Source: an uncultured Flavobacteriales bacterium (GTDB lineage: Bacteria > Bacteroidota > Bacteroidia > Flavobacteriales_D > CAJJDF01). From it: a stretch of 64,000 nt of DNA. This document shows positions 1,149 through 23,942 of this stretch, piece after piece. The notes under the pieces are model-generated. The model made no database searches. It was given only the letters and a program-made list of their open reading frames with translations, and was not told where the DNA came from. The stretch's first letter is position 1. The number at the start of each line of letters is the position of its first letter. Location: assembly GCA_905182785.1 (NCBI GenBank), contig CAJJDF010000015.1, positions 3,555 to 67,554 on the forward strand, written 5' to 3'. The translations under genes and the position numbers were made by a program.

Positions 1149-1156
1149 CAAATATA
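1149..1156 (-). promoter_or_regulatory. candidate Bacteroidota -7 promoter box for zwf
   Basis: The minus strand reads TATATTTG (consensus TAnnTTTG) 11 nt upstream of the zwf ATG. This rests on a single motif. Confidence 0.3.
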
Positions 1157-1160
1157 GGGA

Positions 1161-1185
1161 AGTTATTGTAAACAAAACAATAAGT
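1161..1185. promoter_or_regulatory. candidate operator palindrome (ACTTATTGT-N7-ACAATAAGT family)
   Basis: The plus strand reads AGTTATTGT-aaacaaa-ACAATAAGT, so one arm is perfect and the other matches 8/9. It lies 24-48 nt upstream of the zwf ATG and ends 4 nt upstream of the putative -7 box. It has the same arms and the same 7-nt spacer as 18133-18157. Confidence 0.5.
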
Positions 1186-2101: not shown

Positions 2102-2105
2102 ATAA

Positions 2106-3368: not shown

Positions 3369-3372
3369 TTTT

Positions 3373-4176
3373 TTATTGATTTTGATAAACTCTAACGTAA
3401 TCTATTTCCATATATTGAGCCGTTTGAAGAGATGTGTTACTTACATTTCCTCCTAAGTTTCCCCCAACGGCTGTATTTAATAATAAATGAAATTCAGCAT
3501 CAAAAGGCCAAGTTGCACTAATTGTAGAATTTGTTCTTAATACTTTGTAAGTTTCTACATCATCAATGAACCAAACAATACTATTAGCATCCCATTCAAT
3601 TGTATATTTATGAAATAGATTGTCATAAGCCATCGGTTCTGTTTCTCCAAGTTGCCTGTGGTTTCCTAGATTGTCGGCAAAGTGTATCGTGTTAAAAATT
3701 TCAGTACCCCTATTTCCTACAAATTCCATAATGTCAATTTCACCACTAGTAGGCCACCCATTCTCAGGATTGGTTGGAAGCATCCAGAGCGCATGCCATA
3801 ATCCACCTGCATCTGACATCCTGATTGAAGCTTCAATCTTCCCATATTTAAAGTCACCTTTATTTAAAGAGCGTATTCTTCCTGAGGTATAATCAAAACC
3901 AGCAAAAGTTTCTTTAATGGATTTTATTTTTAATATTCCCCCAGATACAGTTACATTTTCTTTTCTGTAGTATTGTTCTTCATTATTTCCCCATCTATAT
4001 AGCCCATAAGTTGTACCATCCCCGATTTGAGTTTCCCATTTATTCAAGTCTAAATCACTTCCATTAAATTCATCTTGCCAAACTATGCTGGATTTTTTTT
4101 CAATTGGATCACTTTGTTTGCAATTATAGATTGTTGCAATTATACAAAGAAAGTATATAATAGATTTGTTTCTCAT
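3373..4176 (-). CDS. GH16 endo-beta-1,3-glucanase (laminarinase), lipoprotein
   Basis: 267 aa. Contains the catalytic GH16 motif GEIDIMEF (ExDxxE) and W/G-rich jelly-roll motifs. The signal peptide ends ...IYNC. Confidence 0.9.
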   Translation of the reverse strand: MRNKSIIYFLCIIATIYNCKQSDPIEKKSSIVWQDEFNGSDLDLNKWETQIGDGTTYGLYRWGNNEEQYYRKENVTVSGGILKIKSIKETFAGFDYTSGRIRSLNKGDFKYGKIEASIRMSDAGGLWHALWMLPTNPENGWPTSGEIDIMEFVGNRGTEIFNTIHFADNLGNHRQLGETEPMAYDNLFHKYTIEWDANSIVWFIDDVETYKVLRTNSTISATWPFDAEFHLLLNTAVGGNLGGNVSNTSLQTAQYMEIDYVRVYQNQ

Positions 4177-4225
4177 GTGTTATTAATTTTACACTTCAAG
4201 TTAGTAAAAATAAAAGCAAAAAAAA

Positions 4226-4249
4226 ACACAGCAACTGCTGTGTTTTTTT
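4226..4249 (-). terminator. rho-independent (bidirectional-looking) terminator after the 610-aa T9SS protein gene
   Basis: The stem ACACAGC/GCTGTGT has a 4-nt loop and is flanked by an A-run (4218-4226) and a T-run (4243-4249). It lies 11 nt downstream of the stop at 4260. Confidence 0.6.
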
Positions 4250-4259
4250 AATTGTAAGT

Positions 4260-6092: not shown

Positions 6093-6101
6093 AATATTTG
6101 T

Positions 6102-7436
6102 TTACTTATTTGTTTTTATTATTATTTTTCTTTTGTAGTTCCCATTTTCATCTTTTATTTGAATGAAATAAGATCCCGGATTTAAAGATTTTAGGCTAAC
6201 ATTTGTTTTTAAAGATTTTATCCCGTTTAATTGAATTAATTTTCTTCCAGAAATACTAAAAACTATAATTTGCTCTATTTCATTTTCAGATGAAATAGTT
6301 AATTGATCTATGAAAGGATTAGGAAATACATTTACTTGGTTATCTATCTGTTTTTCGTTAATTCCTGCAGAAGCATTAAATGATAAACTGAAATTATCTA
6401 AGAAAATAGAATCTTCTGTTGCAGTAGTGGAGTTTAACAAGAACACAAATTTCTCTATCGAAGTAGCATTAGGAATACTAAAGAGATCCATTGTAAAACT
6501 TTCCCAAGTAGGTGAAGAGGAAGTAGTGAATGATTGATCTAATAAATCGACACCCATTGCATCTTGAAATACTATTTTAAAGTCATATGCTCCAGCTGGG
6601 CTATACAATTGAATTTTGGCTTCGTTAAATTTTGATGTATTAAAAGGGTATAAAATTGTTCCTCCAAAAGCACCATCATTTGTTGGTGGTACATATTTCG
6701 TAAATTTCCCACATGTTTTAGAGGTATTAATACCAGAAGTTACAGGATTTATTTCAAACTGGCTATGTGTACCATTTGCAAAATCAAACGTTACATTTCT
6801 TTGACATTCATAATCATCCACAATTGAAGAATCTTTAGGTGTTCCTAAACACGGGTCTATTAAAGTAGGCCCCATTAAATCATCAAACAAATAAGTGTCA
6901 GAGTTAAAAGAATTAGGGTCAAATAACAAAACCAATTGATTAATATTTGTATCTGAAACAGTTAGGTCGGGGGAGTTTACTAAATTAAAAGTAAGAGTTT
7001 CCCAAGCATTGGAAACAGTTGTTACAGCCGTATACTCGCTATGTCTACCAGTAGGATAGTTTGTTGGGCCTGCGGAAGTATTATCTTCCAATGTAATTTG
7101 TAGTGTTTTTCCAATAGATGTACTGTATACTTTTAGTGTCATTTTCTTGGTTCCAGCTCTATAATCTGCAACACTTGCAATCTTTGTAAGTCCAATTGGA
7201 TTAATTAATATTACATCATATTGTGAAGCTCCATCTCTAGTGTATTGAGCGCATTTTGCACTTGTGTTTACCCCTGTAGTAGAAGGGTTAGAAAATGACT
7301 CGTTAAAAACGGATCCATTAAAGAAAGGATAGGTAACTTTTCCGATGTTATCAAAACCATCCCAATTTGACTGAGAAATTGAGTTAAATGAAAAGGAAAG
7401 AGCTACAGAAATTAGTAAGAAGTTAAAGTGTTTCAT
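6102..7436 (-). CDS. T9SS-secreted non-catalytic protein with two CBM-like modules
   Basis: 444 aa with a signal peptide. Two modules each end in a ...Y/I-(F/L)LD(D/N)- strand (TYLFDDLMG, SIFLDNFSL). The C-terminal sorting domain reads VNVFPNPFIDQLTISS...GSYFIQIKDENGNYKRKIIIK. Confidence 0.7.
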   Translation of the reverse strand: MKHFNFLLISVALSFSFNSISQSNWDGFDNIGKVTYPFFNGSVFNESFSNPSTTGVNTSAKCAQYTRDGASQYDVILINPIGLTKIASVADYRAGTKKMTLKVYSTSIGKTLQITLEDNTSAGPTNYPTGRHSEYTAVTTVSNAWETLTFNLVNSPDLTVSDTNINQLVLLFDPNSFNSDTYLFDDLMGPTLIDPCLGTPKDSSIVDDYECQRNVTFDFANGTHSQFEINPVTSGINTSKTCGKFTKYVPPTNDGAFGGTILYPFNTSKFNEAKIQLYSPAGAYDFKIVFQDAMGVDLLDQSFTTSSSPTWESFTMDLFSIPNATSIEKFVFLLNSTTATEDSIFLDNFSLSFNASAGINEKQIDNQVNVFPNPFIDQLTISSENEIEQIIVFSISGRKLIQLNGIKSLKTNVSLKSLNPGSYFIQIKDENGNYKRKIIIKTNK

Positions 7437-7464: not shown

Positions 7465-7511
7465 ACTTATTGTAAATTTAACTATTACTTATTGTTTAAA
7501 TTACAATTACT
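7465..7511. promoter_or_regulatory. two overlapping degenerate copies of the ACTTATTGT-N7-ACAATAAGT motif
   Basis: 7465-7489 reads ACTTATTGT-aaattta-ACTATTACT (right arm 6/9). 7487-7511 reads ACTTATTGT-ttaaatt-ACAATTACT (right arm 7/9). Both lie 29-75 nt upstream of the 444-aa gene start, in the only sizeable gap inside the cluster. Confidence 0.35.
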
Positions 7512-7548: not shown

Positions 7549-9810
7549 TTATTTAACAACAAAGCCGAGCCTATTGTTCGCAATTTCTATTTTAAAATAA
7601 CCTTCTTCAACCTTCCATTTATTATTAACATCTACAAAAGCTAAGTCTGAAATAGGTAATTTGAATTGAACTCTTTTTGTTTCATTTGCATTCAAATTCA
7701 CCTTTCTAAAAGCTCTTAACCTTTTGACACTTGGTGTTATAGATGCGGTAGAGTCACTTATGTAAACTTGCACAACTTCCTTTCCTGCAATCTCGGAGTT
7801 GTTAGTTACATCTATACTAATTGTTATGCTATCAGTTTTAAGAATCTCAGTTTTATTGATTGATAAATTGGAATAACTAAAAATAGAATAGCTCATCCCA
7901 AATCCAAATTCCCATTGTGGATTAAATGCTTTGTGTCCAAAGCTTATGTCTAATATTTCTGTGTATTTATGATCATAAGGAACAAATGAACCGGTATACC
8001 TCGGGTAAGTAAATGGCAGTTTTCCTGATGGATTCGATTTTCCAAATAGAATTTGAGCCAAAGCTTCTCCTCCAAAATCTCCTGATAAATAGGTATGAAG
8101 AATTGCATTTGCATCATTCACAATAGAATTAATAATTCTAGGACGATTAAAACTTAAAGCAAATACAATAGGTTTATTCAATTTACTTAGTTCTTTTACC
8201 AATTCAACTTGAGCATCTGGTAAATTTAAATCCTTTATGTTTCCAGGTATTTCTGTACAAGGAATTTCTCCCAAGCAAATAACTATCACTTCGCTTTTCT
8301 TAGCTTTTGCAATTGTCTCATTCAAATTTGCTTTTTTATCTAATTCAGAACCTAAAGAATAGATTACATTCCCTGTGCTATTTTCTTTTATTGCCTCGTA
8401 AAAGGTTTTAGTTTTTTTAGTATTATATGCAGTGTCTACTCCTTGCCAAGTGTGAGTCCAAGCTCCGTTTTGTATATTCAATGAATTGGCAGCTGGTCCA
8501 CAAACTAAAATGTTAGTATTTTCCTTTAATGGAAGTAAACTTTTCTCGTTCTTTAATAAAGTGATAGACTCTAGAGCAGTATTTAATGCAATTTTTTTAT
8601 GCTCGTTGGAAGCGAATTTGGTATAATAATCAAAACTTGGGATAGGGTTTTTAAGTAATCCCAATTTTTTTTTTACCCATAATATTCTTCTACAGGATTC
8701 ATCCAGTCTGCTTTCTTTTATTTCTCCACTATCCACCAAACTAATTAACGCTCTATTGAAAGAGTAATCGTTTGGAGTCATACTCATATCAATTCCAGCA
8801 TCAATAGCTAGTTTTACTGCTTCACGCATATCTTTCGCTACTTTATGATCTCTATAAAGTTTTATAATATCTTCCCAATCTGTTACAGCAATCCCTTTGA
8901 ATCCTAATTCATCTCTAAGCAAATTTGTTAAAATAGCTGGATTTGCATGAACAGGAATTCCGTTTATTTCACCAGAATTTATCATTACTGTCAAAGCATT
9001 TTCTTTAATAGCAGTCTCAAAAGTTGGCAAATAGTATTCTTTAAGCTGTCTTGCAGGAATCCAAGCTGGAGTTCTGTCTTTTCCGGACAATGGAGTACTG
9101 TAACCTAAAAAATGCTTCATACAAGATGCTACTTTCTCAGGGTTGGAAGGATCGTCCCCTTGATATCCAGTTATACAAGCTTCTGTCATTTTTTTTGCTA
9201 AATAAACATCTTCTCCATAAGTTTCAAAAAACCTTGACCACAAAGGCTGACGTCCAATATCTAATACTGGAGAGAAATTCCAAGGAATTCCAGATGCACG
9301 ACATTCATAAGCAGTAACTGATGCCCCTTGTTTTACTAATTCTGGATTCCAAGTAGCTGCTTGTCCAATTTGCTGTGGAAAAAGAGTTGCATCTACTGTG
9401 TAGTTCACCCCATGAATAGCATCAATACCATAAATAACAGGAATCTTATTTCCTTCTGTAATTGCTTTAGTTTGTATTTGGGTAATAATTTTTTCCCAAC
9501 GATCTCTTGTGTAAGTGTGACCCCCAACATTAAGTATGGAACCAACAAAATAATGGTTGATTGCAGAATCTAATTTTAAAGAATCTAATTGATGAGGTTT
9601 TACTAGATTGAATATCTCTCCTTTCGAGATTACATCAATATTTATTTGAGTCATTTGCCCCACTTTCTCAGCAATACTCATTTTGGAAATGAAATTTTCA
9701 ATTTCTTTATCAAATCCTATTTCGGATTTATTATTTTTCTTCTTCTCAGAGCAAGAGTTCGTAAGAAAAATTATTGATACAAGGATTAAACCTAATTTCA
9801 TTCCTTTCAT
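7549..9810 (-). CDS. bglX: GH3 beta-glucosidase (exo-beta-glucanase), lipoprotein
   Basis: 753 aa. Contains the GH3 nucleophile motif GFKGIAVTDWEDI, an N-terminal TIM barrel, an alpha/beta sandwich and an Fn3-like tail. The signal peptide ends LTNSC. Its ATG overlaps the upstream stop (ATGA at 9807-9810). Confidence 0.9.
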   Translation of the reverse strand: MKGMKLGLILVSIIFLTNSCSEKKKNNKSEIGFDKEIENFISKMSIAEKVGQMTQINIDVISKGEIFNLVKPHQLDSLKLDSAINHYFVGSILNVGGHTYTRDRWEKIITQIQTKAITEGNKIPVIYGIDAIHGVNYTVDATLFPQQIGQAATWNPELVKQGASVTAYECRASGIPWNFSPVLDIGRQPLWSRFFETYGEDVYLAKKMTEACITGYQGDDPSNPEKVASCMKHFLGYSTPLSGKDRTPAWIPARQLKEYYLPTFETAIKENALTVMINSGEINGIPVHANPAILTNLLRDELGFKGIAVTDWEDIIKLYRDHKVAKDMREAVKLAIDAGIDMSMTPNDYSFNRALISLVDSGEIKESRLDESCRRILWVKKKLGLLKNPIPSFDYYTKFASNEHKKIALNTALESITLLKNEKSLLPLKENTNILVCGPAANSLNIQNGAWTHTWQGVDTAYNTKKTKTFYEAIKENSTGNVIYSLGSELDKKANLNETIAKAKKSEVIVICLGEIPCTEIPGNIKDLNLPDAQVELVKELSKLNKPIVFALSFNRPRIINSIVNDANAILHTYLSGDFGGEALAQILFGKSNPSGKLPFTYPRYTGSFVPYDHKYTEILDISFGHKAFNPQWEFGFGMSYSIFSYSNLSINKTEILKTDSITISIDVTNNSEIAGKEVVQVYISDSTASITPSVKRLRAFRKVNLNANETKRVQFKLPISDLAFVDVNNKWKVEEGYFKIEIANNRLGFVVK

Positions 9811-10949
9811 TTATCAGTAATTTTAATTTCATTTATAAAAACTTCTCCTTCGCCAGTTCCTTCAAAATAGACTTCTCTTATTTGGTCCATTGCAAAATTT
9901 TTATCTTTCAAATTCAAGTTTTTCATAGGGACATTTATTATAGTCCAGTCATTAGAAGTTATTGTTTGAGTTTTACTTGTAAAAATTTCAGCTTTATGTC
10001 CTCTGAAATCGTGTATAAAAACTTTGAATGCTGAGTTTTTTGTTGCTTTTATTTTAATTTGAAAACTAGAATTTTCATCAATACCTCTAAGGTTCATTGC
10101 ATACCAACCATTCCAGTTAATCCCCCATTTTGCCCAGCTGCATTCTTTTGAATTGTATATCCAGTGAATTTGTTTTGTTTCATTTTTAGATATTTCCTCT
10201 ACCAAAGTTTGACATTCGTTATTTTCAGAACCCCAAACATCTTCTTCAAAACTTCCTTCTCTGTAAACAATTTGATTCGCGTTTCCTTTTGGTCTCATGA
10301 GTTCAACATCTGCTCTCATTTTGTCATATTTTTCTTGAGAATAGTCGATAATCGTGATTTCATCTAGAAAGAATGACCCACCACCTTCTAGTTGAAATTT
10401 CATTTGTTTTATTGAGCTAATATCTACTTCATTTTCTTCATCTATAGGGAAATGCCATAATGGAACAATTATTTGTTTCCAAGTTGTATCCATTTCAAGA
10501 CCATAAAGGTATTTTCCTGCATCAATATAATAATAACTTCCTCCACCAGAAAAATCTTCTAAGTTTGCAACAATAGGAATTGCTCGTGCGGTTTTTTCTT
10601 GTGTTCTTACGTAAAATGAAAGTGCTTTTCTGAAACGGGATTCAGACAAATCTGTTGGCTGCCAGTTATTGAAACTGTTTCCAAATCCAATCCATTCACA
10701 TTTTGCTTTATTCCAATCTAACTTTATGCTGGATTTTCCAGAATAAGCTACTTGGTTACTTATTTCGAAGTTTCCACAATTGAAAAGTGAATTCCACATT
10801 GTCCCTGTCCCTTCGCTAAAAAATACTTGTTCATCATCTTCTCTAGAGGCAGGGAATTCATATTTGTCATATAAGACCTGTTCTTGAAATTTTATACTGT
10901 CACAAGTTGCAAGTAGTAATGTAAACGTTATAAAAACTAATTTTCTCAA
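9807..10949 (-). CDS. lipoprotein with two tandem aromatic-rich beta-sandwich modules (candidate surface glycan-binding protein)
   Basis: 380 aa. The lipobox reads LLATC. There are two ~165-aa halves, each with a W/G-rich core (CEWIGFGNSFNNW; WAKWGINWNGWY) and a terminal ...FLDEITII / ...VFINEIKI strand. ATGA overlaps occur at both ends. Confidence 0.6.
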   Translation of the reverse strand: MRKLVFITFTLLLATCDSIKFQEQVLYDKYEFPASREDDEQVFFSEGTGTMWNSLFNCGNFEISNQVAYSGKSSIKLDWNKAKCEWIGFGNSFNNWQPTDLSESRFRKALSFYVRTQEKTARAIPIVANLEDFSGGGSYYYIDAGKYLYGLEMDTTWKQIIVPLWHFPIDEENEVDISSIKQMKFQLEGGGSFFLDEITIIDYSQEKYDKMRADVELMRPKGNANQIVYREGSFEEDVWGSENNECQTLVEEISKNETKQIHWIYNSKECSWAKWGINWNGWYAMNLRGIDENSSFQIKIKATKNSAFKVFIHDFRGHKAEIFTSKTQTITSNDWTIINVPMKNLNLKDKNFAMDQIREVYFEGTGEGEVFINEIKITDK

Positions 10950-11947
10950 GGTGTGTAAGGTTTATTAGTAGTAAATATCAAATGATCAATGTATGCTTTG
11001 GCTAATCCATTGTCTTTGTTGGCCAGGTAAAACACGTTAATAGACATTAATTTTCCTGGTTCTGGTAGTCCGTTACCATTAGTGGAAACTTTATTACCGT
11101 CAACATCAAATTGTATGTCAGAGTACTTGTAACTGATTAGATTCCATCCTGTATCCTCGAACCAATATTCGTAAATAAATCTATCTTCAGTAGCTAAGTC
11201 GAATGTTCCATCTCCATTTTCGTCTTCATCAAACCAAAACTGGATAAATGTGTTTCCAGTACCAGAGTTTTCAATTGGCTTGAAAGCCATGTTAAAAAAC
11301 AAATTAGAAGCACTTGCTGGTAATCCGAAATTAGCTGTGCTAGGCTGAATCATAACTGACCCAATAGCCCAATCCCAAGGGACATTTCCAGTAAAACTGT
11401 AATGACAATTTCCTTTTGCAGATTCTCCGCTTCCACAATCGATTTTTCCTTGAACTGTCGATTGATTAAATTTAGACCAATTTGCACCTTCTCCATTTTC
11501 AAAACTTGTAATAAGGTATCCTGCATCTACTTTGCTTCCAGTAATAGAAACGGTATCATAAAGTATAGGTGAGCCTTCTTCCTTGGGAAAACTTATTTCA
11601 ATATAGGCAGTTTCTATTCCAAATCCAGGGAAAGAATTTGCTCCTCCATCCCAAGTAGAATTGTCAGCAGAAATAACTCTTTGGGTTCCACTTATAGACC
11701 TTTTAGCCCCAGTTGAAGCCCCAGTAATTGAAATTACCCAGTCGGTATTTTTCGATAATTCACCTGTAAAGTGAAGCGTGTTATCTACAGGGAAATCTGC
11801 TGTTTTTTTGTTAACTTCAATTTCTTGGATTATTGAAAATGGGCCGAATAAGTCATTTAAATCAGGACCATCAAAATTTTCTGAATCGTCTTTTCTACAA
11901 GAAAAGATTAAGAGAACTGATATAAGGACTAATGTTGTTTTTTTCAT
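10946..11947 (-). CDS. lipoprotein, candidate surface glycan-binding protein
   Basis: 333 aa. The lipobox reads LIFSC. The protein is rich in beta-strands and ends YIDHLIFT, like the neighbouring CBM-like modules. I recognised no known family. Confidence 0.55.
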   Translation of the reverse strand: MKKTTLVLISVLLIFSCRKDDSENFDGPDLNDLFGPFSIIQEIEVNKKTADFPVDNTLHFTGELSKNTDWVISITGASTGAKRSISGTQRVISADNSTWDGGANSFPGFGIETAYIEISFPKEEGSPILYDTVSITGSKVDAGYLITSFENGEGANWSKFNQSTVQGKIDCGSGESAKGNCHYSFTGNVPWDWAIGSVMIQPSTANFGLPASASNLFFNMAFKPIENSGTGNTFIQFWFDEDENGDGTFDLATEDRFIYEYWFEDTGWNLISYKYSDIQFDVDGNKVSTNGNGLPEPGKLMSINVFYLANKDNGLAKAYIDHLIFTTNKPYTP

Positions 11948-11950
11948 AAT

Positions 11951-13666
11951 TTAAAAAGTAAGAGAGTATAAAAATGTGAATTGTGAAATTCCATAATTCA
12001 CAGAAGTTGCGTCTTTGTGTTTTACATCAAAAAATTGGTATTGAGCAGACAAAGTATTTTTATCGTTAAATCTATATCTTAGCCCTGAAGCATAAGTATT
12101 TTCTGAAAAATTATAATCTAAGATATCGAAATTTTCAATGGCGTTAAATTGATTACGCAGATTCACGTAAGTATTTCCTTTTACCACCCATACTTTGGCA
12201 CCAACCAAAAGGTCTAGTTTCTCGGCAAACTCCCAAGATATTCCCGCATCTATAAAAGTGCTATTAAGTTTTACTTTTTCGTATACTTCTCCAGTTCTCG
12301 AAGTGTTTTCGTATCTAAGTCCTAAATCAACTTTTAGCTGTTTTTTCCATCCAAAAAAATCATTGATATATACATCAGTTCCTGCTTCAATTTGTATAAA
12401 TTTTTTCTTTTTAGAGGTTCCCGTTCCTCTAGACTGAGTCATAAATGCAGCCTTGACAAAACTGTTTTTAAATTTAACAGAATCCGTTCTTACTAAATTT
12501 AGATAAACTCCTCTTCTGTTTGGAGTTGCATCTCCGTAAGGATTCATATTGTTGTATCCAGCAAAATAAGGAATTAGCTCCTCTGATATCTTAATTGAAT
12601 TTTCAGTGTTTCCGCTAATAAAATCAGTGTAACTTATTGGTCTTCCTGTTACATTATTACTTATTTGCTGGTATAACCCAGGGAATTTCGAATAATTAAT
12701 TCTTTTTGTTTGCGCTCCTGGAGATAAAAAATCAGCTCCAATATCTTTATAACCCAATTCTACAGTGATTTTTTTGTCTTCAAAATCTGTAACGAATGCT
12801 AGATCATAAAAATAATCATTTATAGATTCTGGCGCTCTAGCATCTTTGTAATTTATGTATTGCGCTCCAGACATCCCTGTTTCCGTTTTTATCCCTAGAC
12901 TAATGTTTTCTCTCAAATTCCTTTTATAAAGTAAATTAAAAGTATGGACATTATTTTTATATTGAATACTGTCTTGAATAGTTTCTGTAAGGTCAAAAAT
13001 ATTAACACTATTGAAACCAAAGGAAAGGTTTTCACTTTGTTTAATATTTATTGTTCCACCACCATATAATCTTTCTGGCTCTACAATTCCATCAGTTGGT
13101 CTTTGTCTAGTAATGAATCCTTTAAATTTTATGGCTTCGATTACATTCGCAAACTCTAATCCAAAATTCACTTTTGCTCCTTGCATTCTCCAGGAGTTGT
13201 CTTCGTTATAGAACATATCGTAATACACTATTTCTCTTCTCATGGCAAACACATCTCCTTCATTTATTGCACCTTCTTCAATTGTATTGAATAAAGTATA
13301 AGGAGTCATTTTTAGATCTATATCCCCAATTTCATATTTTACTTTATTTCCTGCAACCCCTTTCAAAGTAAGTTGTCTTACATTAAAAGAAACACCACCT
13401 CCCCAGAACCCGCCAATTTCGTTTCTAATTCTAAACATAGAAATTACCTCAGTATTTTTATTTGGGAATAAACTAATTCCCATATCCAATAGCGTGTGTC
13501 CGTAATTCGCTTTTCTTGTTGTAACTGAATCAAGAGATTCGTCTATATTCAATTTATTAGAAAATAAATAACCCCTTGCCGCTCCGTTTATTTGAAACTT
13601 CTTTTGCTGACCAATAAGTACATTGGTAGTTAGAATTAAAAGCAGTATTAATATTTTTTTAGTCAT
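11951..13666 (-). CDS. plug-less outer-membrane beta-barrel (putative porin)
   Basis: 571 aa with a signal peptide. The mature N-terminus enters alternating beta-strand sequence directly, with no TonB box or plug-sized domain. It is rich in Y/G/N and has a C-terminal aromatic signature ...FLYSLTF. Confidence 0.6.
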   Translation of the reverse strand: MTKKILILLLILTTNVLIGQQKKFQINGAARGYLFSNKLNIDESLDSVTTRKANYGHTLLDMGISLFPNKNTEVISMFRIRNEIGGFWGGGVSFNVRQLTLKGVAGNKVKYEIGDIDLKMTPYTLFNTIEEGAINEGDVFAMRREIVYYDMFYNEDNSWRMQGAKVNFGLEFANVIEAIKFKGFITRQRPTDGIVEPERLYGGGTINIKQSENLSFGFNSVNIFDLTETIQDSIQYKNNVHTFNLLYKRNLRENISLGIKTETGMSGAQYINYKDARAPESINDYFYDLAFVTDFEDKKITVELGYKDIGADFLSPGAQTKRINYSKFPGLYQQISNNVTGRPISYTDFISGNTENSIKISEELIPYFAGYNNMNPYGDATPNRRGVYLNLVRTDSVKFKNSFVKAAFMTQSRGTGTSKKKKFIQIEAGTDVYINDFFGWKKQLKVDLGLRYENTSRTGEVYEKVKLNSTFIDAGISWEFAEKLDLLVGAKVWVVKGNTYVNLRNQFNAIENFDILDYNFSENTYASGLRYRFNDKNTLSAQYQFFDVKHKDATSVNYGISQFTFLYSLTF

Positions 13667-15561
13667 TAGAAAATAATTTTTAGTTCCAAAGTAGTTTCGT
13701 GACCTGCAAATTGATCCAATGCAAAATTGCGGTCTTTAAATGTGAAATACCTATGTCTTAAATAAATAGCTGTATTTTTTGCTAATAAATAATCTATCCC
13801 AAGCCCAAAAGCAAACCCCTCCTGGTTTCTTGGGCGGTTAGATTCAATATCAACTTCGGTATCGTAATTTGCAATTACCCTTTCCCATCCTAAATATTGA
13901 GATAATATTACTTTAGGATGTAGTTTGTAATAACTTTCTAATTGGTGAGAATAATAACGCAAATATGCCTCCTCATTAAATACGGTAACAGGCGAAAATT
14001 TCTTTTGTATAGAATTGTATGAACCTAAGTAAAATAAGTGCCAAGGATTTCCAAAAAGATTTATTTTATACTTTACTTGCGCTTCAATGTTATTAAAATG
14101 TTTGTCATTCACAACTGCCCCCTGATTGTCTAAATCAGTTAAATTAAGTGTTTGAAATACATTTCTAAATAAAACAGAAGTGCTGTTATACGGTCCAACA
14201 TTAGCTGGGAAACTCCATCTCCAAAATCTAGACATTGTTAATCCGTTTATGGCGTGACCGTAAGTAATGGATTTGTTTTCGTTTCTAATTTCTTTTGAGA
14301 AACCATTGCCAATTGAAACAATAGCCTCCTTTATTTTAAATTCGGTATTAATATTTAACCCCTGACGGTTATTTGCCATTTGTCCCATACCAAGCATTGC
14401 ACTTCCATTTTGTTGTAACACTCCATTGGCACCAATCACTGTGCTGATTCCAGCTGCAGCAGATGTTGCCTCAACTACAGAAGTATTTACAAATTCGGCA
14501 TTGTTATTTACAACATCAGGATTTATTCTGAAATAATGAATTTCGATTGGGATCTTAGTCAAGCTTTTCTTTAAATTTACTTTTAATGAAACCATTTCGC
14601 CTATTCCTAAATCTTTGTACACATCCTTATAATGTCCCGCTCCAACCTCTCCTAATAAAGAAAATTTATCGAAGCTAAAATAAAACTCACTGGTTAAAAC
14701 TTGGTTACTTATTTCTTCTGTTGCAAGAGCATTAGAGTAAGTTTTTCTATTAAAACTATTCAGACTAATTCTGTGTTTATTAAAAGTTTTTTTAATACTT
14801 CCCGCAATTACATTGTTAGGAATTGTATTGTCATAAAATTTAATAAAATTATTGGAAGTGGAATCATACGATATATTGGCAGGATCTATAAAAGCTGCTC
14901 CAGCATTTTGAGTCTTCCCATACATAAAATTAGCTGATATTCCAAGTGGTAATTCTGTTAAATCTAATATAAATCCTTGAACAGCTTGTTGCGCCCATCT
15001 TGTATCTTGAGAAATTGCCCCGTTCTTATAATAATCTTCGTACCTCTTGTTCAATTCTTTGAATTGCGGATCCCAAGGATTTCTGTCGAAAATGCTATAT
15101 CTATTATAACCAGAAAATGACTTCATTGTGAATGCAGTCATACTATGCCAGTGAATTCCTCCAGCTTTTACGCCAATATTTGCAAATTTTGTTTTAAAAT
15201 TCCCATACAAATTTATTCCTAATTGTAGATTGTGATAGTAATCGAAATCACCATTGTTTTGATTCCAGATTACCAAATCTGTACCAAAAGAAGTCCCTTT
15301 TGATGGACTTCCTCCAATGTTTAGAGTTAACTCTGGCAATTGAGATGCATCACCAACTAGGATCGTTCGTTTACTTAAATATTGGGGTTGGTCATTTAAT
15401 ACTTGAAAAGCATACGGGTTTGTAAACAACCTATGTTGTGTAAAAAATCGATAATTTCCACTGATATTAAATCCTTGCAAAGGAGCTTTTTTAACAATAG
15501 TGTCTTGAGCAACTAATTGAAAAGAAAACAACAGTAATATGATTGTATAAATTGACTTCAT
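13666..15561 (-). CDS. plug-less outer-membrane beta-barrel (putative porin)
   Basis: The ORF track gives 13666-15588. I prefer the second Met (MKSIYTIILLLFSFQLVAQ, a clean signal peptide), ATG at 15559-15561, which gives 631 aa and removes the 26-nt overlap with the symporter. The C-terminus is ...TTLELKIIF. No plug or TonB box. Confidence 0.6.
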   Translation of the reverse strand: MKSIYTIILLLFSFQLVAQDTIVKKAPLQGFNISGNYRFFTQHRLFTNPYAFQVLNDQPQYLSKRTILVGDASQLPELTLNIGGSPSKGTSFGTDLVIWNQNNGDFDYYHNLQLGINLYGNFKTKFANIGVKAGGIHWHSMTAFTMKSFSGYNRYSIFDRNPWDPQFKELNKRYEDYYKNGAISQDTRWAQQAVQGFILDLTELPLGISANFMYGKTQNAGAAFIDPANISYDSTSNNFIKFYDNTIPNNVIAGSIKKTFNKHRISLNSFNRKTYSNALATEEISNQVLTSEFYFSFDKFSLLGEVGAGHYKDVYKDLGIGEMVSLKVNLKKSLTKIPIEIHYFRINPDVVNNNAEFVNTSVVEATSAAAGISTVIGANGVLQQNGSAMLGMGQMANNRQGLNINTEFKIKEAIVSIGNGFSKEIRNENKSITYGHAINGLTMSRFWRWSFPANVGPYNSTSVLFRNVFQTLNLTDLDNQGAVVNDKHFNNIEAQVKYKINLFGNPWHLFYLGSYNSIQKKFSPVTVFNEEAYLRYYSHQLESYYKLHPKVILSQYLGWERVIANYDTEVDIESNRPRNQEGFAFGLGIDYLLAKNTAIYLRHRYFTFKDRNFALDQFAGHETTLELKIIF

Positions 15562-15562
15562 T

Positions 15563-17206
15563 TTACCAAAAGATTGAATATAGTGCAATTAATAATAAGA
15601 TGATTCCGAATGATAAAATATTGTAAGTTTTGTCAGTTTTGAATAAATTAGAAGTAAAATGTATTCCTTTTTTGTCGTCTACCCCTTTGTTTTGTAGTAA
15701 TGATATAACTATCATAATGGTAGTAGTAATTAGAAATGTAATTCCCATTTGATGCATAAATGGTAAGTCTGGAAAGATTGCACTACTTGACCATCCTTTG
15801 GGGCCAATCTTGAAAAACATTGCAATAGGTATAGAAAGAAAAGCACCAATTATTGCAGCTCTTGCTGTGGCTTTTTTCCAAAACAAACCTAAAATAAATA
15901 TGGCTAAGATTCCTGGACTAACTATACCAGTATATTCCTGAATGTATTGAAACATCTCTGGAACACTATCTAGTAAAGGAGCTAAAATCACAGCAATTAT
16001 CAAGGCAACTAATCCAGATAATCGACCTACTTTAACTAGTTGTTTTTCTGATGCTTCTTTGTTGATTAAGGGTTTGTACAAATCCATTGTGAAAATGGTA
16101 GAAGTACTATTTAGCATGGAAGCAAGCGAAGAAACAATTGCTGCTGCTAATGCTGCAAGGATTAATCCTTTTAATCCTGCTGGAATAAATTTAGAAATTA
16201 ACCAAGGATATGCTCTGTCGTTTTCTACAACACCCGCTGCATTGGTAAACTCGGCAACTACCTCAGGGTCTTCAATAAACATTGTGTATGCAATGATTCC
16301 CGGGATTATTACTATCAAAGGGACTATCATTTTTAAGATTGCTGCAAAAACAATTCCTTTTTGTGCTTCTTTGAGACTTTTTGCAGCTAATGTTCTTTGA
16401 ATAATATATTGATTGAAACCCCAATAGTAAATATTAGCAACCCACATTCCTCCTACTAATACTGCAATTCCAGGGTATTTATTGTAATCTTTATGAGCTT
16501 TATCTAAAATCATATCAAATTTCTCTGGAGCCTTTTCAAATATATATTGAAAACCACCCATTATAGATTCGTCAGGCGATATGTGAGTTAGTGCAATTCC
16601 TGTAGTAATTAGACCACCAACAATAAGTAAAACAACTTGAATAACGTCTGTCCATACAACAGAAGATAAACCACCCCACAAAGAGTAAGCAGCTGTAAAC
16701 AATGCAAATCCTATTATGCAATAGATAACCATGGCTCCATCACCTTCTCCCATAATGGTATCAAGTGCTGTTGCTCCTAAATACAAAACAGAGGTTAAAT
16801 TAACTAACACAAACAAGGCTACCCAAAATACTGCTAGAACAGATTTTACTTGAGCGTTGTATCTTTTTTCTAAGAATTCAGGAATGGTGTAAAGTCCTTT
16901 TTCAATGAAAATAGGGAGGAAATATTTACCGACAATAATAAGAGTTAAGGCTGCCATCCATTCGTAAGATGCAATAGCTAGTCCTACTACAAAACCTCCT
17001 CCAGACATTCCAATAAATTGCTCAGCAGATATATTTGCGGCAATTAGCGAAGCTCCAACAGCCCACCAGGGGAGAGATTTACTAGCAAGAAAGTAATCAC
17101 TAGAATTGACTTGATCTTTCTTAGGACGAGAGACAAACAATCCGACTGATAATATTAGGATTGCGTAAACTACTAAAACAACAATGTCAATGGGAGCTAA
17201 ATTCAT
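15563..17206 (-). CDS. sodium:solute symporter family (SGLT-like Na+/glucose) transporter
   Basis: 547 aa with ~13-14 hydrophobic helices. The N-terminus reads ...DYFLASKSLPWWAVGASLIAANISAEQFIGMSG, characteristic of the SSF/SGLT family. Confidence 0.88.
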   Translation of the reverse strand: MNLAPIDIVVLVVYAILILSVGLFVSRPKKDQVNSSDYFLASKSLPWWAVGASLIAANISAEQFIGMSGGGFVVGLAIASYEWMAALTLIIVGKYFLPIFIEKGLYTIPEFLEKRYNAQVKSVLAVFWVALFVLVNLTSVLYLGATALDTIMGEGDGAMVIYCIIGFALFTAAYSLWGGLSSVVWTDVIQVVLLIVGGLITTGIALTHISPDESIMGGFQYIFEKAPEKFDMILDKAHKDYNKYPGIAVLVGGMWVANIYYWGFNQYIIQRTLAAKSLKEAQKGIVFAAILKMIVPLIVIIPGIIAYTMFIEDPEVVAEFTNAAGVVENDRAYPWLISKFIPAGLKGLILAALAAAIVSSLASMLNSTSTIFTMDLYKPLINKEASEKQLVKVGRLSGLVALIIAVILAPLLDSVPEMFQYIQEYTGIVSPGILAIFILGLFWKKATARAAIIGAFLSIPIAMFFKIGPKGWSSSAIFPDLPFMHQMGITFLITTTIMIVISLLQNKGVDDKKGIHFTSNLFKTDKTYNILSFGIILLLIALYSIFW

Positions 17207-17231
17207 GTCTTATAATGTTAATTACACGATT

Positions 17232-17256
17232 ACTTATTGTAATACTGACGCTAAGA
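17232..17256. promoter_or_regulatory. operator-like site in the leader of the symporter gene
   Basis: Reads ACTTATTGT-aatactg-ACGCTAAGA (perfect left arm, right arm 6/9), 26-50 nt upstream of the symporter ATG (17206). A TATTTTTG -7-like box lies on the minus strand at 17260-17267, just upstream of it. Confidence 0.4.
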
Positions 17257-17268: not shown

Positions 17269-17961
17269 TTATACATCAAAATTGAATCCTTTCTTTTCAA
17301 GGATTTCATACTGTTTTTTATCGAACTGAAATAATTTGGCAGGTCTATGAGAAACATTCTCTTGGAGTTTCCCAGTTTCTTTTAAAAGTTTCATTTGAAG
17401 AATTTTTTTACGAAAATTCCTTGTATCCATTTTAATATCTAAAATAGCTTCATACAAAAGTTTTAGCTCGGTAAGTGTAAATAGTTGTGGCAACAATTCA
17501 AATCCTAAAGGCCTGATTCTAACTGATTTTTGAAGTTTTTGGATAGAACTCAATAGAATTTTATCATGATCAAAAGCAAGTTCGTTTATTTTTTTTATTT
17601 TAAACCACTTAGCTTTCGAGGCAAAAGAAGAAGGATTTAATTCGTAATCGTCAATTTTTATAAGGGTATAATAACCAGTGGTTATTACTCTGCCAAGAGG
17701 GTGTCTTTTAATTTCACCAAAAGTTTCTACTTGTTCGAAGAACAAATCACTCAAACCAGTAAGATCTTTTAAAATATGATTTACAGAGACATTCAAATCT
17801 TCATCAGGTTTCATTAAGTCTCCAGGTAAGGCCCAAAAATTTTTAAAAGGAACTTCACCTCTTTTGATTAATAAGACTTTTAAATCTTTTCCGTCAAAAC
17901 CGAAAACGACACAATCAATTGAGACGGCCAGTGTAAAATATTTTTTTAGGTTTTTTTCCAA
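17269..17961 (-). CDS. Nudix-domain + winged-helix transcription regulator (NrtR/AraR-like), catalytically degenerate
   Basis: 230 aa. The N-terminal Nudix fold has its Nudix box degenerated (GDLMKPDEDLNVSVNHILKDLTG; REUxEE is replaced by NHILKD). The C-terminal ~90 aa (FTLTELKLLYEAILDIKMDTRNFRKKILQ...) resembles the NrtR wHTH. Confidence 0.7.
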   Translation of the reverse strand: MEKNLKKYFTLAVSIDCVVFGFDGKDLKVLLIKRGEVPFKNFWALPGDLMKPDEDLNVSVNHILKDLTGLSDLFFEQVETFGEIKRHPLGRVITTGYYTLIKIDDYELNPSSFASKAKWFKIKKINELAFDHDKILLSSIQKLQKSVRIRPLGFELLPQLFTLTELKLLYEAILDIKMDTRNFRKKILQMKLLKETGKLQENVSHRPAKLFQFDKKQYEILEKKGFNFDV

Positions 17962-18124
17962 GAGTAAATAGTTTAATCAAATTGTAACAATGAATTGCAA
18001 TAGTAGGTTTAATATATAAAACTACAAATTCTAATTTATTATTCAAATTAATAAGTTAATCAATTTGAGAAAATAGGACTTTAGTTTATTGAGCTTTTAA
18101 TTTTTTTTAGTTTACTTCTTTATT

Positions 18125-18165
18125 TTCAAATAACTTATTGTACATTTAACAATAAGTTATTTGAA
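18125..18165. promoter_or_regulatory. perfect 17-bp-arm palindrome; candidate operator
   Basis: Reads TTCAAATAACTTATTGT-acattta-ACAATAAGTTATTTGAA, with a core ACTTATTGT-N7-ACAATAAGT at 18133-18157. It sits in the 317-nt divergent region between the regulator (start 17961) and gap (start 18279). Confidence 0.55.
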
Positions 18166-18242
18166 GAGGCTCCATTATATTTAATCTTTTAATTTGATAA
18201 TAATTGTTCGTCAGATAGTTTAAATTTAAAAGAGAAATATAA

Positions 18243-19274
<1,032 letters not shown>

Positions 19275-23850: not shown

Positions 23851-23942
23851 TTGTTAGCTTATCTATGTTTTGATTCGCTAAGATATAGAATTAATTTCAT
23901 TATTGTTTGAGATAAAACAACTTCAATTTTTTAACTTCAACC

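Follow-up and report, generated by a model that had tools for sequence, protein, structure and literature searches.

A perfect palindrome upstream of gap as the predicted operator of a putative NrtR/AraR-family repressor of glucan and glucose utilisation in a marine flavobacterium

Introduction

Regulation of sugar catabolism is poorly mapped in marine and environmental Bacteroidota, and the regulators of glycan use that are known are mostly membrane sensors tied to individual PULs. In Proteobacteria, HexR, a member of the RpiR family, is a sugar-responsive repressor with palindromic sites before zwf, gap, and glucose-uptake genes. In Formosa agariphila, BguR is required for laminarin induction and growth (bioRxiv 10.64898/2026.01.10.698779); the paper describing it makes no mention of Nudix or NrtR.

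The operator of the NrtR family is a 21-bp palindrome with a GT-N7-AC core (PMC2330246). The AraR dimer covers 25 bp, and tandem sites are known in the family (PMC4666351). The catalytic signature of Nudix enzymes is GX5EX7REUXEEXGU (PMC2330246, PMC4666351), and the phosphate- and adenine-binding space of SoNrtR is filled in BtAraR (PMC4666351). In the AraR-DNA crystal structure, residue 179 is a lysine that contacts G7, and Arg180 intercalates at the T-G step; what determines specificity at these two residues had been left open by the same paper (PMC4666351). No glucose- or glucan-specific NrtR-type regulator, and no such regulon, was found in the literature searched.

A Palindrome between a Regulator Gene and gap

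The window, meaning the whole 64-kb stretch of flavobacterial DNA analysed here, contains a gene for a regulator of this kind, divergent from gap:

18125..18165, no strand: 41-bp perfect palindrome (17-bp arms, 7-nt centre), the best-scoring site of the window (30.0 bits)
17269..17961, minus strand: regulator of 230 aa with a TTG start, a Nudix-like domain and an NrtR/AraR winged-helix domain (Pfam, PDB)
18279..19274, plus strand: gap (glyceraldehyde-3-phosphate dehydrogenase), likely target of the palindrome

The palindrome reads TTCAAATAACTTATTGT-acattta-ACAATAAGTTATTTGAA. As the first-pass annotation of this DNA had described, its arms are complementary at 17/17 positions and it lies in the divergent region of 317 nt, which is bounded by the regulator start (TTG, 17961) and the gap ATG (18279). 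The first pair outside the arms is T/G. The predicted operator core occupies 18133-18157 and reads ACTTATTGT-acattta-ACAATAAGT. Judged from sequence, the palindrome is very probably the strongest of five sites for the adjacent protein, a putative NrtR/AraR-family repressor of a glucan/glucose regulon.

A mini-palindrome in the same region, ATTGT-a-ACAAT (17981-17991), had been regarded as related. It is indeed present, but it was rejected as a site, as its spacing is wrong and it is not kept in a relative whose regulator is 90% identical.

Four Further Sites and the Genes They Precede

The 25-bp core, ACTTATTGT-N7-ACAATAAGT, recurs at 1161, 7465, 7487, and 17232, and the genes downstream are as follows:

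1161..1185, no strand: predicted operator before zwf, AGTTATTGT-aaacaaa-ACAATAAGT, 25.2 bits
7465..7511, no strand: two tandem predicted operators with a 22-bp offset (7465-7489 and 7487-7511), 22.6 and 25.2 bits
17232..17256, no strand: predicted operator located after the regulator stop codon and before the SSF transporter start, 22.8 bits
16620..16628, minus strand: lone ACTTATTGT half-site in the SSF gene, 1.4 bits as a 25-mer
1..1137, minus strand: zwf (glucose-6-phosphate dehydrogenase), its 3' part beyond the window (TIGR00871, 451 bits, cutoff 400.6)
1235..7436, minus strand: operon under the 7465/7487 sites (profile and PDB matches)
7549..17206, minus strand: operon under the 17232 site (gene order)

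The repetition of the core arms with their 7-nt spacing at 1161-1185, 7465-7511, and 17232-17256, which had been noticed in the first pass, is confirmed at 22.6-25.2 bits by a weight matrix trained exclusively on 20 sites from other genomes. This matrix scores the sites at 18133, 1161, 7487, 17232, and 7465 at 30.0, 25.2, 25.2, 22.8, and 22.6 bits, respectively, while the next best site in the 64 kb has 7.7 bits and the mean of the best scores per shuffle is 10.1. All five sites are intergenic. They stand before zwf, before the T9SS-protein/GH16/GH158/glucokinase operon (the tandem pair), before the SSF-transporter/porin-like/GH3 operon, and before gap.

The 9-mer ACTTATTGT is expected 1.19 times in the window (the earlier estimate was once or twice in the two strands of 64 kb) and occurs seven times, a count reached in 0/100 shuffles. 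Six intergenic copies had been reported as the full set; these six stand, but there is a seventh inside the SSF transporter gene (16620-16628), which was not counted as an operator given its score as a 25-mer. A pattern search with mismatches had been proposed, and on the window it returned six matches to the 25-bp pattern at ≤3 mismatches, five of them in the non-coding DNA that makes up 9.7% of the sequence.

The window is 31-35% G+C, and exact matches also occur in unrelated metagenome contigs, so that the recurrence might be put down to chance in AT-rich intergenic DNA or to a small mobile or repetitive element present in several copies. This explanation is already refuted and has next to no probability. 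The six matches compare with 0.12 expected from shuffles, the matrix from other genomes sets the five sites apart by 15 bits, and other genomes have sites at the orthologous positions. The copies in the window differ from one another in flanks and spacers, and are therefore not copies of one element.

The individual sites vary in quality. Those at 7465 and 17232 are symmetric at only 6/9 positions, which counts against the operator reading. On the minus strand, the latter reads TCTTAGCGT-cagtatt-ACAATAAGT; orthologues of it were found in loci L001, L004, L072, L081, and L085-L090. The 22-bp tandem layout of 7465..7511 recurs in L081, L085, and L089. A degenerate tandem partner of the 17232 site (17210-17234) scores 0.7 bits and was not counted. 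The counterpart of 17210-17234 is a good site in L081, L085, and L089.

The operon at 7549..17206 encodes an SSF sodium:solute symporter, a 640-aa porin-like beta-barrel, unannotated proteins of 571 aa and 333 aa, a 380-aa CBM30-like protein, and a GH3 enzyme; at least 10 other loci have these genes in the same order after the regulator. The operon at 1235..7436 encodes two T9SS-tailed proteins, GH16, GH158 (a beta-1,3-glucanase family; PDB 9oro 1e-99, 6pal 2e-74), and a BadF-type sugar kinase.

The Regulator Belongs to the NrtR/AraR Family

The regulator matches NrtR_WHD (5e-26), AraR_C (5e-15), and NUDIX (5e-6) in Pfam, and aligns with BtAraR (PDB 5bs6) over residues 9-218 with an E-value of 1e-45. 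It has the architecture of the family, an N-terminal Nudix fold followed by the family's C-terminal winged helix. Its Nudix box reads G-DLMKP-D-EDLNVSV-NHILKDLTG, with NHILKD in place of REUxEE; this impaired signature suggests that the domain acts as a ligand sensor rather than as an enzyme. The sugar-binding residues R34, R86, and H131 of AraR are kept, while F36, F49, and D87 are changed to E, L, and H. The sites fit the family as well: the box TTATTGT-N7-ACAATAA, assigned to all five, contains the GT-N7-AC core, and the sites adjoin the regulator and coherent metabolic promoters in an arrangement that is conserved across genomes. The assignment of the regulator and its sites to the NrtR/AraR family of Nudix-related regulators, a known kind, is well supported.

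Conservation in Other Genomes

The comparison set consisted of 79 loci carrying relatives of the regulator. Phylogenetic footprinting, which had been suggested as a check, supports the palindrome: it is kept in relatives with regulators 98% and 90% identical, where the flanks diverge, and sites stand at orthologous positions elsewhere. Within 300 bp upstream of the regulator relatives, these loci contain 37 motif matches, against an expectation of 0.77 from an all-DNA background or 3.7 from other intergenic DNA. In 36/79 loci, with representatives in Flavobacteriales, Saprospiraceae, Pedobacter, and Cytophagales, the motif stands upstream of the regulator relative at a distance of 23-285 bp, for the most part 44-136 bp. 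Across the compared loci, 67 of the 81 motif matches are intergenic. The motif precedes gap in L003, L081, L084, L101, and L151, and further genes preceded by it are those for SSF, pfk, an MFS sugar transporter, T9SS proteins, and SusC-like proteins. Cultured carriers of the box include Pedobacter montanisoli (L074), where the site belongs to pfk-glk-gap, and Phaeodactylibacter xiamenensis (L034). In L090 (pfk-gap-kinase-regulator), the site expected upstream of pfk was not detected, which counts against the operator reading.

An exact-pattern metagenome scan is supporting evidence only, and no clean genome-wide test. Genes found to have the box at their start were zwf (4), gap (2), glk (2), GH16, and GH158, and the box also lay beside six regulator relatives. 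An identical box adjoins a canonical nrtR-pncA pair in 69% GC soil contigs from another phylum, where it directly follows the nrtR gene and lies 28 bp upstream of the PncA-like gene. The metagenome scan also picked up some 17 palindromes lying where two genes converge, and seven occurrences of a single gut-metagenome locus. The exact palindrome between convergent ends in unrelated contigs counts against the operator reading, and looks like chance or a terminator-like hairpin.

On an alternative reading, the 41-bp palindrome would act mainly as a nucleic-acid structure and not as a protein site, whether as a DNA cruciform, as a terminator or insulator, or as an RNA hairpin in the leader of gap or of the regulator gene. 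As RNA, it has a folding energy of -20 kcal/mol (z = -6.9). In the relative with the 90%-identical regulator, substitutions in the outer arms are symmetric (C>T with G>A), with a G-U pair resulting from the single core change; gap-linked sites in three lineages have 6-14 bp of extra symmetry; and similar palindromes lie between convergent genes in Pedobacter as well as in metagenome contigs. However, the palindrome sits between two divergent gene starts, and neither strand has a T-run after it. It was recognised neither as an intrinsic terminator (the terminator scan gave 0 terminator-like sites) nor as a known structured RNA (no Rfam family at threshold; the microRNA-hairpin matches reached 25 bits where the gathering score is 79). 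What is conserved between genomes is the sequence of the half-sites more than their pairing, as in ACTTAGTGT...ACAATAAGT with its G/A mismatch, spacers vary freely, and the other four sites of the window are poor hairpins (6-8 of 9). A mainly structural role is distinctly improbable. As a secondary feature, structure may explain the extra 8 bp per arm, which exceed the 25 bp covered by an AraR dimer and are absent from the other four window sites, both points counting against the operator reading.

A Proposed Recognition Code at Residues 179 and 180

The recognition helix of the regulator, D-T-R-N-F-R-K-K, contains the conserved DNA-contacting residues R180, N181, R183, and K184. Among regulators with Lys179, position 6 of the half-site is G in 53 cases and T in 25, while with Thr179 it is T in 19 and G in 2 (Fisher P = 2e-6, for counts that are not phylogenetically independent). 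Where residue 180 is Arg, position 7 is T in 33/34 half-sites; where it is Ser, Pro, or Ala, A or G is found in 10/10, and again these half-sites are not phylogenetically independent, which counts against the operator reading. Position 6 of the operator thus co-varies with residue 179, and position 7 with residue 180, in line with the predictions of the AraR-DNA structure. The Ala180 regulators of L119 and L155 adjoin perfect TGT sites, a further point against; because of this, loss of Arg180 appears to relax position 7, rather than to act as a strict switch. The pairing of Lys/Thr179 with G/T and of Arg180 with the T of TGT yields a recognition code that can be tested throughout the NrtR family.

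The initial suggestion was an operator for a dimeric regulator, with the adjacent NrtR-like protein as the obvious candidate and an RpiR/HexR- or LacI-type regulator encoded elsewhere as the alternative. Four independent lines of evidence, namely family geometry, the linkage of motif and regulator, co-variation, and the box at the nrtR-pncA pair, point to the adjacent protein, and we infer that it binds the sites. Were the operator that of an RpiR/HexR, LacI, or Crp type of regulator, with the Nudix-type protein as a bystander, the presence of sites at zwf and gap would be readily understood, as these are classic HexR targets in Proteobacteria. Yet the motif tracks relatives of the Nudix-type regulator across orders, even beside unrelated neighbour genes, the helix residues of this very protein co-vary with operator bases, and GT-N7-AC is the NrtR family's own geometry. 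Moreover, no DNA-binding domain of another regulator was found among the 46 window ORFs scanned. A regulator from elsewhere is, thus, highly improbable.

Promoter Context and Mode of Action

The -7 promoter consensus of Bacteroidota is TAnnTTTG. A scan for it gave a clean result only for zwf among the zwf, gap, SSF, and T9SS-operon promoters. Two candidate elements were placed:

1149..1156, minus strand: candidate Bacteroidota -7 box of zwf, TATATTTG, 4 bp downstream of the predicted operator
18017..18047, minus strand: putative regulator-gene promoter, TTTG-N19-TAGTTTTA, about 100 bp from the palindrome

The near edge of the zwf site is 24 bp from the zwf ATG (1137). This arrangement is also seen before zwf in L119, L155, L134, and L168, and in four other genomes the TATATTTG box likewise stands 2-4 bp away from the operator. 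The block at 18017..18047 is kept in the relative with the 90%-identical regulator; because an alignment of the regulator upstream regions of more distant relatives shows no conserved block, this putative promoter is drawn from close relatives. A sigma-70 promoter scan of 17900-18320 found no excess over shuffles, the sigma-70 consensus being the wrong one for Bacteroidota.

The target of the palindrome in this genome is probably gap, and not the promoter of the regulator itself. Two observations at gap count against the operator reading: the palindrome ends 114 bp from the gap ATG, and the TAnnTTTG scan placed no convincing gap promoter. The distance and the absence of overlap with a clear -7 box would suit a regulator that activates gap from a site whose centre lies about 45 bp before a possible TATATTTA -7 box (18176-18183) and represses elsewhere, and gap is needed whenever sugar is catabolised. 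Nevertheless, the characterised members of the family, NrtR, AraR, and NdnR, are all described as ligand-released repressors, the site at zwf clearly overlaps the promoter, ending 4 bp from the candidate -7 box, and the assignment of the gap promoter is weak. Activation of gap is, therefore, unlikely, and we infer repression.

Proposed Mechanism and Significance

The regulator appears to be a repressor that switches a set of beta-glucan and glucose utilisation genes in this marine flavobacterium. A BtAraR-like homodimer would place its winged-helix domains on the TTATTGT and ACAATAA half-sites, with the TGT and ACA cores 7 bp apart. The apo-dimer on DNA would cover or abut the promoter and so repress transcription; a neutral sugar in the catalytically dead Nudix pocket would then rotate the DNA-binding domains and release the DNA. 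D-glucose is the favoured effector, albeit tentatively. The four weaker copies of the 25-bp box would act in the same way before zwf, the SSF/porin-like/GH3 operon, and, in tandem, the T9SS-protein/GH16/GH158/kinase operon. Such a regulon would link beta-1,3-glucan breakdown and glucose uptake to the entry of carbon into glycolysis and the pentose-phosphate pathway.

It is tempting to speculate, with rather less assurance than for the effector, that this subgroup of regulators comprises glucose-sensing master repressors that are widespread in Bacteroidota (Flavobacteriales, Saprospiraceae, and Sphingobacteriales), one of their main targets being an undescribed outer-membrane module for glucan uptake free of SusC/SusD. 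If so, one repressor would tie beta-glucan harvest to gap, pfk, zwf, and glk, a role that falls to HexR, Cra, or CcpA in other phyla, and the module would comprise the 640-aa plug-less beta-barrel, a CBM-like lipoprotein, and the 571-aa and 333-aa proteins that lack annotation. The regulon points to this conserved, unannotated outer-membrane gene set as a candidate for glucan uptake. If the proposal is true, a cytoplasmic one-component switch would link glycolysis and the pentose-phosphate pathway to the degradation of laminarin-type glucan, a major flux of carbon in the sea, and the DNA motif could be used to find regulon targets in uncultured genomes.

Comparison with Known Systems

HexR is a functional analogue whose protein fold and effector domain are unrelated to those of the window regulator; none of the window ORFs scanned was found to encode an RpiR-type protein. 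BguR likewise governs laminarin utilisation genes in marine Bacteroidota, but unlike the window regulator it is a PUL-linked, membrane-spanning one-component activator of 940 aa with a periplasmic sensor and a GerE-type HTH (bioRxiv 10.64898/2026.01.10.698779).

NrtR sensu stricto (Shewanella SO1979, Synechocystis Slr1690; PMC2330246) belongs to the same family, has the 21-bp GT-N7-AC palindrome, and represses near the regulator gene. These are ADP-ribose-responsive repressors of NAD metabolism, whereas the window regulator is far closer to BtAraR. Against the NCBIfam equivalog NF050029 ('NtrR'), which covers the ADPR-responsive proteins, it scores 150.9 bits with a cutoff of 400, and no NAD gene in the window has a site: the two NAD-related ORFs detected there, Sir2 (23943) and a cytidylyltransferase-like ORF (62963-63556), are both siteless.

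XylR of the BT0791 type, a predicted NrtR-family xylose regulator of Bacteroidetes (PMC3878776, PMC4666351), shares family and phylum. A xylan-linked context is seen in L068 (Cytophagales), where a regulator 52% identical has a near-identical box by genes for a GH10 xylanase and an FGGY kinase. Its pocket has Y36, F49, and Y87, in contrast to E, L, and H in the window regulator. On gene content and on the L068 pocket, the window regulator falls outside the XylR group; xylA, xylB, and xylan genes are absent from the window.

The closest system is BtAraR (BT0354), the L-arabinose repressor of Bacteroides thetaiotaomicron (PDB 5bs6, 5dd4, 5ddg, 5deq; PMC4666351). The window regulator stands apart from the arabinose group in several respects. 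Firstly, within the R34/F36/F49/R86/V92/F129/H131 pocket, F36 and F49 are replaced by E and L, and the neighbouring D87 by H. Secondly, Lys179 is Thr in the window regulator, and the operators differ, AAGTGT-N7-ACACTT in BtAraR against TTATTGT-N7-ACAATAA in the window. Thirdly, the tandem offset is 24 bp in BtAraR (21-bp sites 3 bp apart) and 22 bp in the window. Finally, neither the window nor the related loci that were examined contained ara genes; in their place, the regulon has beta-1,3-glucanases, a glucose-type transporter, a kinase, zwf, and gap (with pfk elsewhere). The two proteins nonetheless share a two-domain architecture that can be aligned end to end, a dead Nudix box, the sugar contacts R34, R86, and H131, and the helix x-R-N-F-R-K, and both systems have TGT-N7-ACA palindromic operators in the promoter regions of sugar genes, with tandem operators before some operons.

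The predicted operator in the window

The 317-nt divergent region between the TTG start of the regulator gene (17961, minus strand) and the start of gap (18279) contains a palindrome that the first-pass annotation had described as having 17-bp arms. This description is borne out, and the symmetry is perfect:

18125-18165: TTCAAATAACTTATTGT-acattta-ACAATAAGTTATTTGAA, perfect palindrome, 17-bp arms and 7-nt centre

The 9-mer ACTTATTGT occurs seven times in the window, compared to 1.19 expected from dinucleotide-preserving shuffles of the window. Six copies had been counted previously, all of them intergenic; six are indeed intergenic, and the seventh is a lone half-site in coding sequence (16620-16628). 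The pattern ACTTATTGT-N7-ACAATAAGT with up to 3 mismatches (the 25-bp box) gives six matches, compared to 0.12 expected, five of them in the non-coding DNA that makes up 9.7% of the window. The reported recurrence at 1161-1185, 7465-7511 and 17232-17256 was recovered both by this search and by an independent weight matrix, whose 20 training sites come from other genomes only, so that the window scan is not circular. Five window sites (18133, 1161, 7487, 17232 and 7465) score 22.6-30.0 bits. The next best of the ~64,000 window positions reaches 7.7 bits, and the top score in shuffled windows averages 10.1 bits. The five sites are all intergenic, and they are confined to 1-18.2 kb of the window; no matrix site was found in the other 46 kb, where the 25 ORFs scanned include recJ, gdhA, gcvP, purD, purT, clpP and hflX.

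A good isolated half-site, CATTATTGT, is located 21 bp before a Sir2/CobB-type NAD-dependent deacetylase gene (23943-24623), 5.7 kb away from the regulator. The corresponding 25-mer (23898-23922) matches 13 of 18 positions and is absent from the 25 best matrix scores. For Mycobacterium, acetylation of NrtR is reported (PMC6800001). The half-site before the Sir2/CobB gene is probably a coincidence.

Genes downstream of the sites

Every target gene except gap is encoded on the minus strand. The sites preceding these genes, and the enzyme that defines the substrate, are:

1161-1185: predicted operator, near edge 24 bp from the zwf start
7465-7489 and 7487-7511: predicted tandem operators, overlapping at a 22-bp offset, upstream of an operon encoding two T9SS-tailed proteins, GH16, GH158 and a BadF-type sugar kinase
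17232-17256: predicted operator upstream of an operon encoding SSF, 640-aa beta-barrel, 571-aa, 333-aa, CBM30-like and GH3 proteins
2106-3368, minus strand: GH158 enzyme (PDB 9oro, 1e-99; 6pal, 2e-74)

The identity of zwf is given by TIGR00871 (451 bits), and the first gene product under 17232-17256 is an SSF sodium:solute symporter. Pfam finds only a weak GH2 TIM-barrel in ORF 2106-3368. GH158 is a family of beta-1,3-glucanases, and the assignment of this ORF to it therefore identifies beta-1,3-glucan as the substrate of the locus. Together, the site-bearing genes form a system for the utilisation of beta-1,3-glucan and glucose, to which two central enzymes are added.

Conservation of the predicted operator

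A scan of one genome per species gave 80 loci with relatives of the regulator (47-81% identity), whose hosts include Flavobacteriales, Saprospiraceae/Lewinellaceae, Pedobacter, Cytophagales and others. A degenerate box (ACTTAkTGT-N7-ACAmTAAGT, at least 14 of 18 matches) is present in 76 copies in the 1.23 Mb of these loci. Of these, 37 copies, in 36 of 79 loci, lie within 300 bp upstream of the regulator gene, most of them 44-136 bp from its start, compared to 0.77 expected at the overall rate or 3.7 at that of other intergenic DNA. The genes divergent to the regulator gene in Saprospiraceae are unrelated ones (HU-like protein, beta-eliminating lyase, ComEC), so the site there belongs to the regulator itself, which indicates putative autoregulation. 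The box also precedes SSF transporters in five lineages, gap in L003 (L-numbers denote comparison loci from other genomes or metagenome contigs), pfk in Pedobacter and L050, as well as MFS sugar transporters, T9SS-tailed proteins and a SusC-like receptor.

In closer relatives, obtained by exact protein look-up, the SSF/beta-barrel operon is still preceded by the site, in many cases by a pair in 22-bp tandem, and those with gap as the divergent neighbour retain the 41-bp palindrome. The palindrome is unchanged in L084 (regulator 98% identical) and has three changes in L081/L082 (90%); around it, the rest of the intergenic region has either diverged or undergone deletion.

When metagenome contigs were searched for an exact match to the 18 specified bases, 80 loci were returned. 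Here the box is found at the starts of zwf (four cases), gap (two), sugar kinase (two), GH16 (one) and GH158 (one) genes, and adjoins T9SS/CBM48 proteins and a TonB-dependent receptor; a regulator relative adjoins it in six loci.

Three Pedobacter genomes carry a perfect palindrome, TCTTAGTGT-aagtaat-ACACTAAGA (L074 6885-6909, L076 6886-6910, L080 6873-6897), 3' of gap, at the end of the pfk-glk-gap operon and between convergent genes; the pfk start has a weaker site. About 17 metagenome matches likewise lie between convergent gene ends. These gene-end palindromes may be terminator-like hairpins, roadblocks or chance occurrences.

Three soil contigs of 69-70% G+C carry an identical ACTTATTGT-N7-ACAATAAGT, in each case 28 bp before an isochorismatase-family (PncA-like) gene:

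L153 1219-1243: box before PncA-like gene
L113 2121-2145: box before PncA-like gene
L166 2-26: box before PncA-like gene

In L153, the one contig examined, the gene directly upstream encodes NUDIX and NrtR_WHD domains with the helix D-A-R-N-F. This nrtR-pncA order is canonical for NAD-type NrtR regulons. It is very unlikely that an 18-base AT-rich palindrome would arise by chance in such GC-rich DNA. As judged from sequence, the box is shown to be an old, family-typical NrtR operator, common to NAD-type NrtR regulons in a distant phylum.

The regulator and its proposed recognition of DNA

The regulator (230 aa, 17269-17961) comprises NUDIX and NrtR/AraR winged-helix domains, and aligns almost full-length to the structure of BtAraR, the Bacteroides thetaiotaomicron arabinose repressor (PDB 5bs6, E 1e-45). 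Its Nudix catalytic box is destroyed, with NHILKD in place of REUxEE; the box is likewise described as impaired in NrtR and AraR. Every runnable membership test placed the window system in the NrtR/AraR family. The regulator scores 150.9 bits against the NCBIfam ADP-ribose-responsive NrtR equivalog (cutoff 400), and is therefore a family member and not that equivalog. Membership tests rejected all three narrower identities: the ADP-ribose NrtR equivalog, an AraR orthologue and a xylose regulator.

BtAraR operators have the form AAGTGT-N7-ACACTT, the dimer covers 25 bp, and tandem sites precede the ara operon (PMC4666351). The window box, TTATTGT-N7-ACAATAA in a 25-bp unit, has exactly this geometry, including the tandem copies. 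The tandem pairs, which overlap by 3 bp at a 22-bp offset (about two helical turns), precede transporter and T9SS-protein operons:

Window 7465-7511: tandem operators
L081 6706-6752: tandem operators
L085 2841-2887: tandem operators
L089 10707-10753 and 20413-20459: tandem operators

The arrangement is reminiscent of the tandem AraR sites in Bacteroides and points to possible cooperative binding by two dimers.

In complex with DNA, BtAraR contacts G7 of GTGT through a hydrogen bond from Lys179, and its Arg180 intercalates at the T8-G9 step (PMC4666351). On the half-site ACTTATTGT, the equivalents of these bases are positions 6 and 7-8. In loci with Lys179, position 6 is G in 53 half-sites and T in 25; at Thr179 loci (Thr is the residue of the window regulator), the split is 19 T to 2 G (Fisher P = 2e-6). 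For residue 180, sites were defined by their outer arms alone and the core was left free. Position 7 is T in 33 of 34 half-sites at Arg180 loci, and A or G in all 10 half-sites at Ser180 or Pro180 loci. The Ala180 locus L073, found only by the degenerate-box scan, has a GGT core in three of four half-sites. The exceptions are two Ala180 metagenome loci that were picked for an exact TGT box and whose own upstream sites have GGT or AGT cores; they imply that loss of Arg180 relaxes the position-7 requirement and does not switch it. The half-site counts for both residues come from loci that share ancestry, and P values calculated from them overstate the evidence; even so, the direction of the apparent co-variation at 179 and 180 matches the crystal structure.

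Extended symmetry of the long arms

In each arm of the 18125-18165 palindrome, just the inner 9 bp are part of the shared motif. The outer 8 bp, TTCAAATA (18125-18132) and TATTTGAA (18158-18165), are conserved in close relatives; L081 has C>T in one arm and the matching G>A in the other, which preserves the symmetry. Past the 25-bp unit, the symmetry extends by 8, 14 and 6 bp at gap-linked sites in three lineages, by 9 bp at a GH16-gene site and by 7 bp at a TonB-receptor-gene site:

Window 18125-18165: operator with extra symmetry
L081 5805-5857: operator with extra symmetry
L101 3397-3433: operator with extra symmetry
L171 5512-5554: operator with extra symmetry
L116 2393-2431: operator with extra symmetry

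The remaining 16 listed sites, some in closely related contigs, have 0-2 extra bp. The probability of at least 6 extra matches by chance is 0.016 per site even in pure A/T sequence. The AT-rich symmetric flanks could favour minor-groove wing contacts, or flanking half-site-like sequence in the 22-bp tandem register could recruit further dimers; AGTTATTTG in the flank resembles AGTTATTGT. It is also possible that the long arms add a hairpin function to the transcript. However, an RNA hairpin cannot explain the whole motif, given that pairing is not conserved across genomes, the spacers vary, and there is neither a T-run at the palindrome nor an Rfam or terminator match.

Mode of action and effector

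At zwf, the operator edge is 4 bp upstream of TATATTTG, which matches the Bacteroidota -7 element (consensus TAnnTTTG). The operator-to-box distance at zwf is 2-4 bp also in L119, L155, L134 and L168. This juxtaposition means that the operator spans roughly -13 to -37, where the bound regulator would block RNA polymerase. In the SSF operon, the site is located downstream of a TATTTTTG box, which would be a roadblock position. Because every characterised NrtR/AraR family member is described as a repressor released by its ligand, the window regulator is likely to be a repressor too.

The three residues with which BtAraR hydrogen-bonds arabinose (R34, R86, H131) show no variation in the regulator group, nor do V92 and F129. 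Those packing on arabinose C4/C5 are altered (F36>E/A/T, F49>L), and the neighbouring D87 is replaced by an invariant His; the xylan-linked relative L068, unlike the window group, has Tyr at both 36 and 87. The pocket looks like a neutral-sugar site reshaped for another sugar. Given the regulon content (glucanases, glucose-type transporter, kinase, zwf, gap and pfk), D-glucose is a tentative best guess for the effector; glucose-6-phosphate or a beta-glucan oligosaccharide is possible.

The candidate promoter of the regulator lies ~100 bp from the palindrome, and is conserved in a relative with a 90% identical regulator:

18017-18047: TTTG-N19-TAGTTTTA, candidate regulator promoter

Close relatives in which the regulator gene and gap are not adjacent lack a site before the regulator gene, so the palindrome in the window lineage most likely controls gap. 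It ends 114 bp before the gap ATG, and no convincing promoter could be placed in the gap upstream region. At gap alone, the regulator could repress by occlusion, act from afar, or even be an activator.

A possible glucan-uptake module

Several genes under the 17232 operator are unannotated:

9807-15588, minus strand: gene set for 640-aa, 571-aa, 333-aa and 380-aa CBM30-like proteins
13666-15588, minus strand: 640-aa beta-barrel protein

The AF2 model of the 640-aa protein is a confident large beta-barrel with no plug domain (pLDDT 77, pTM 0.76), with only a loose likeness to solved porins (TM-scores 0.2-0.4). For the 640-aa, 571-aa and 333-aa proteins, comparison with Pfam, NCBIfam and PDB sequences gave nothing significant, the sole exception being a sub-threshold OMP_b-brl match of the barrel. 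The 380-aa CBM30-like protein has a lipoprotein-type signal. Among the matches listed, all relatives of the 640-aa protein carry a hypothetical or nameless annotation. In at least 10 genomes the gene set accompanies the regulator, SSF, GH3, GH16 and GH158, in loci that contain no SusC/SusD pair; it may represent an undescribed SusCD-independent glucan-uptake module. A Tara Oceans gene-catalogue entry (P0121) matches the 640-aa protein at 100% identity, and the Tara scaffold L151 has the same gap-regulator palindrome. The best genome matches (81% identity) are uncultured marine Flavobacteriales MAGs, which places the origin of the window in an uncultured marine flavobacterium.

Comparison with known regulators

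In the full-text literature searched, no NrtR-type regulator of glucose, beta-glucan or glycolytic genes is described. The recently described laminarin regulator BguR is a membrane protein unrelated to the window regulator. The outcome is a solid, transferable regulon prediction, together with a useful recognition-code observation. By analogy, the window system would work like BtAraR and NrtR; it is a known mechanism, not a new one.
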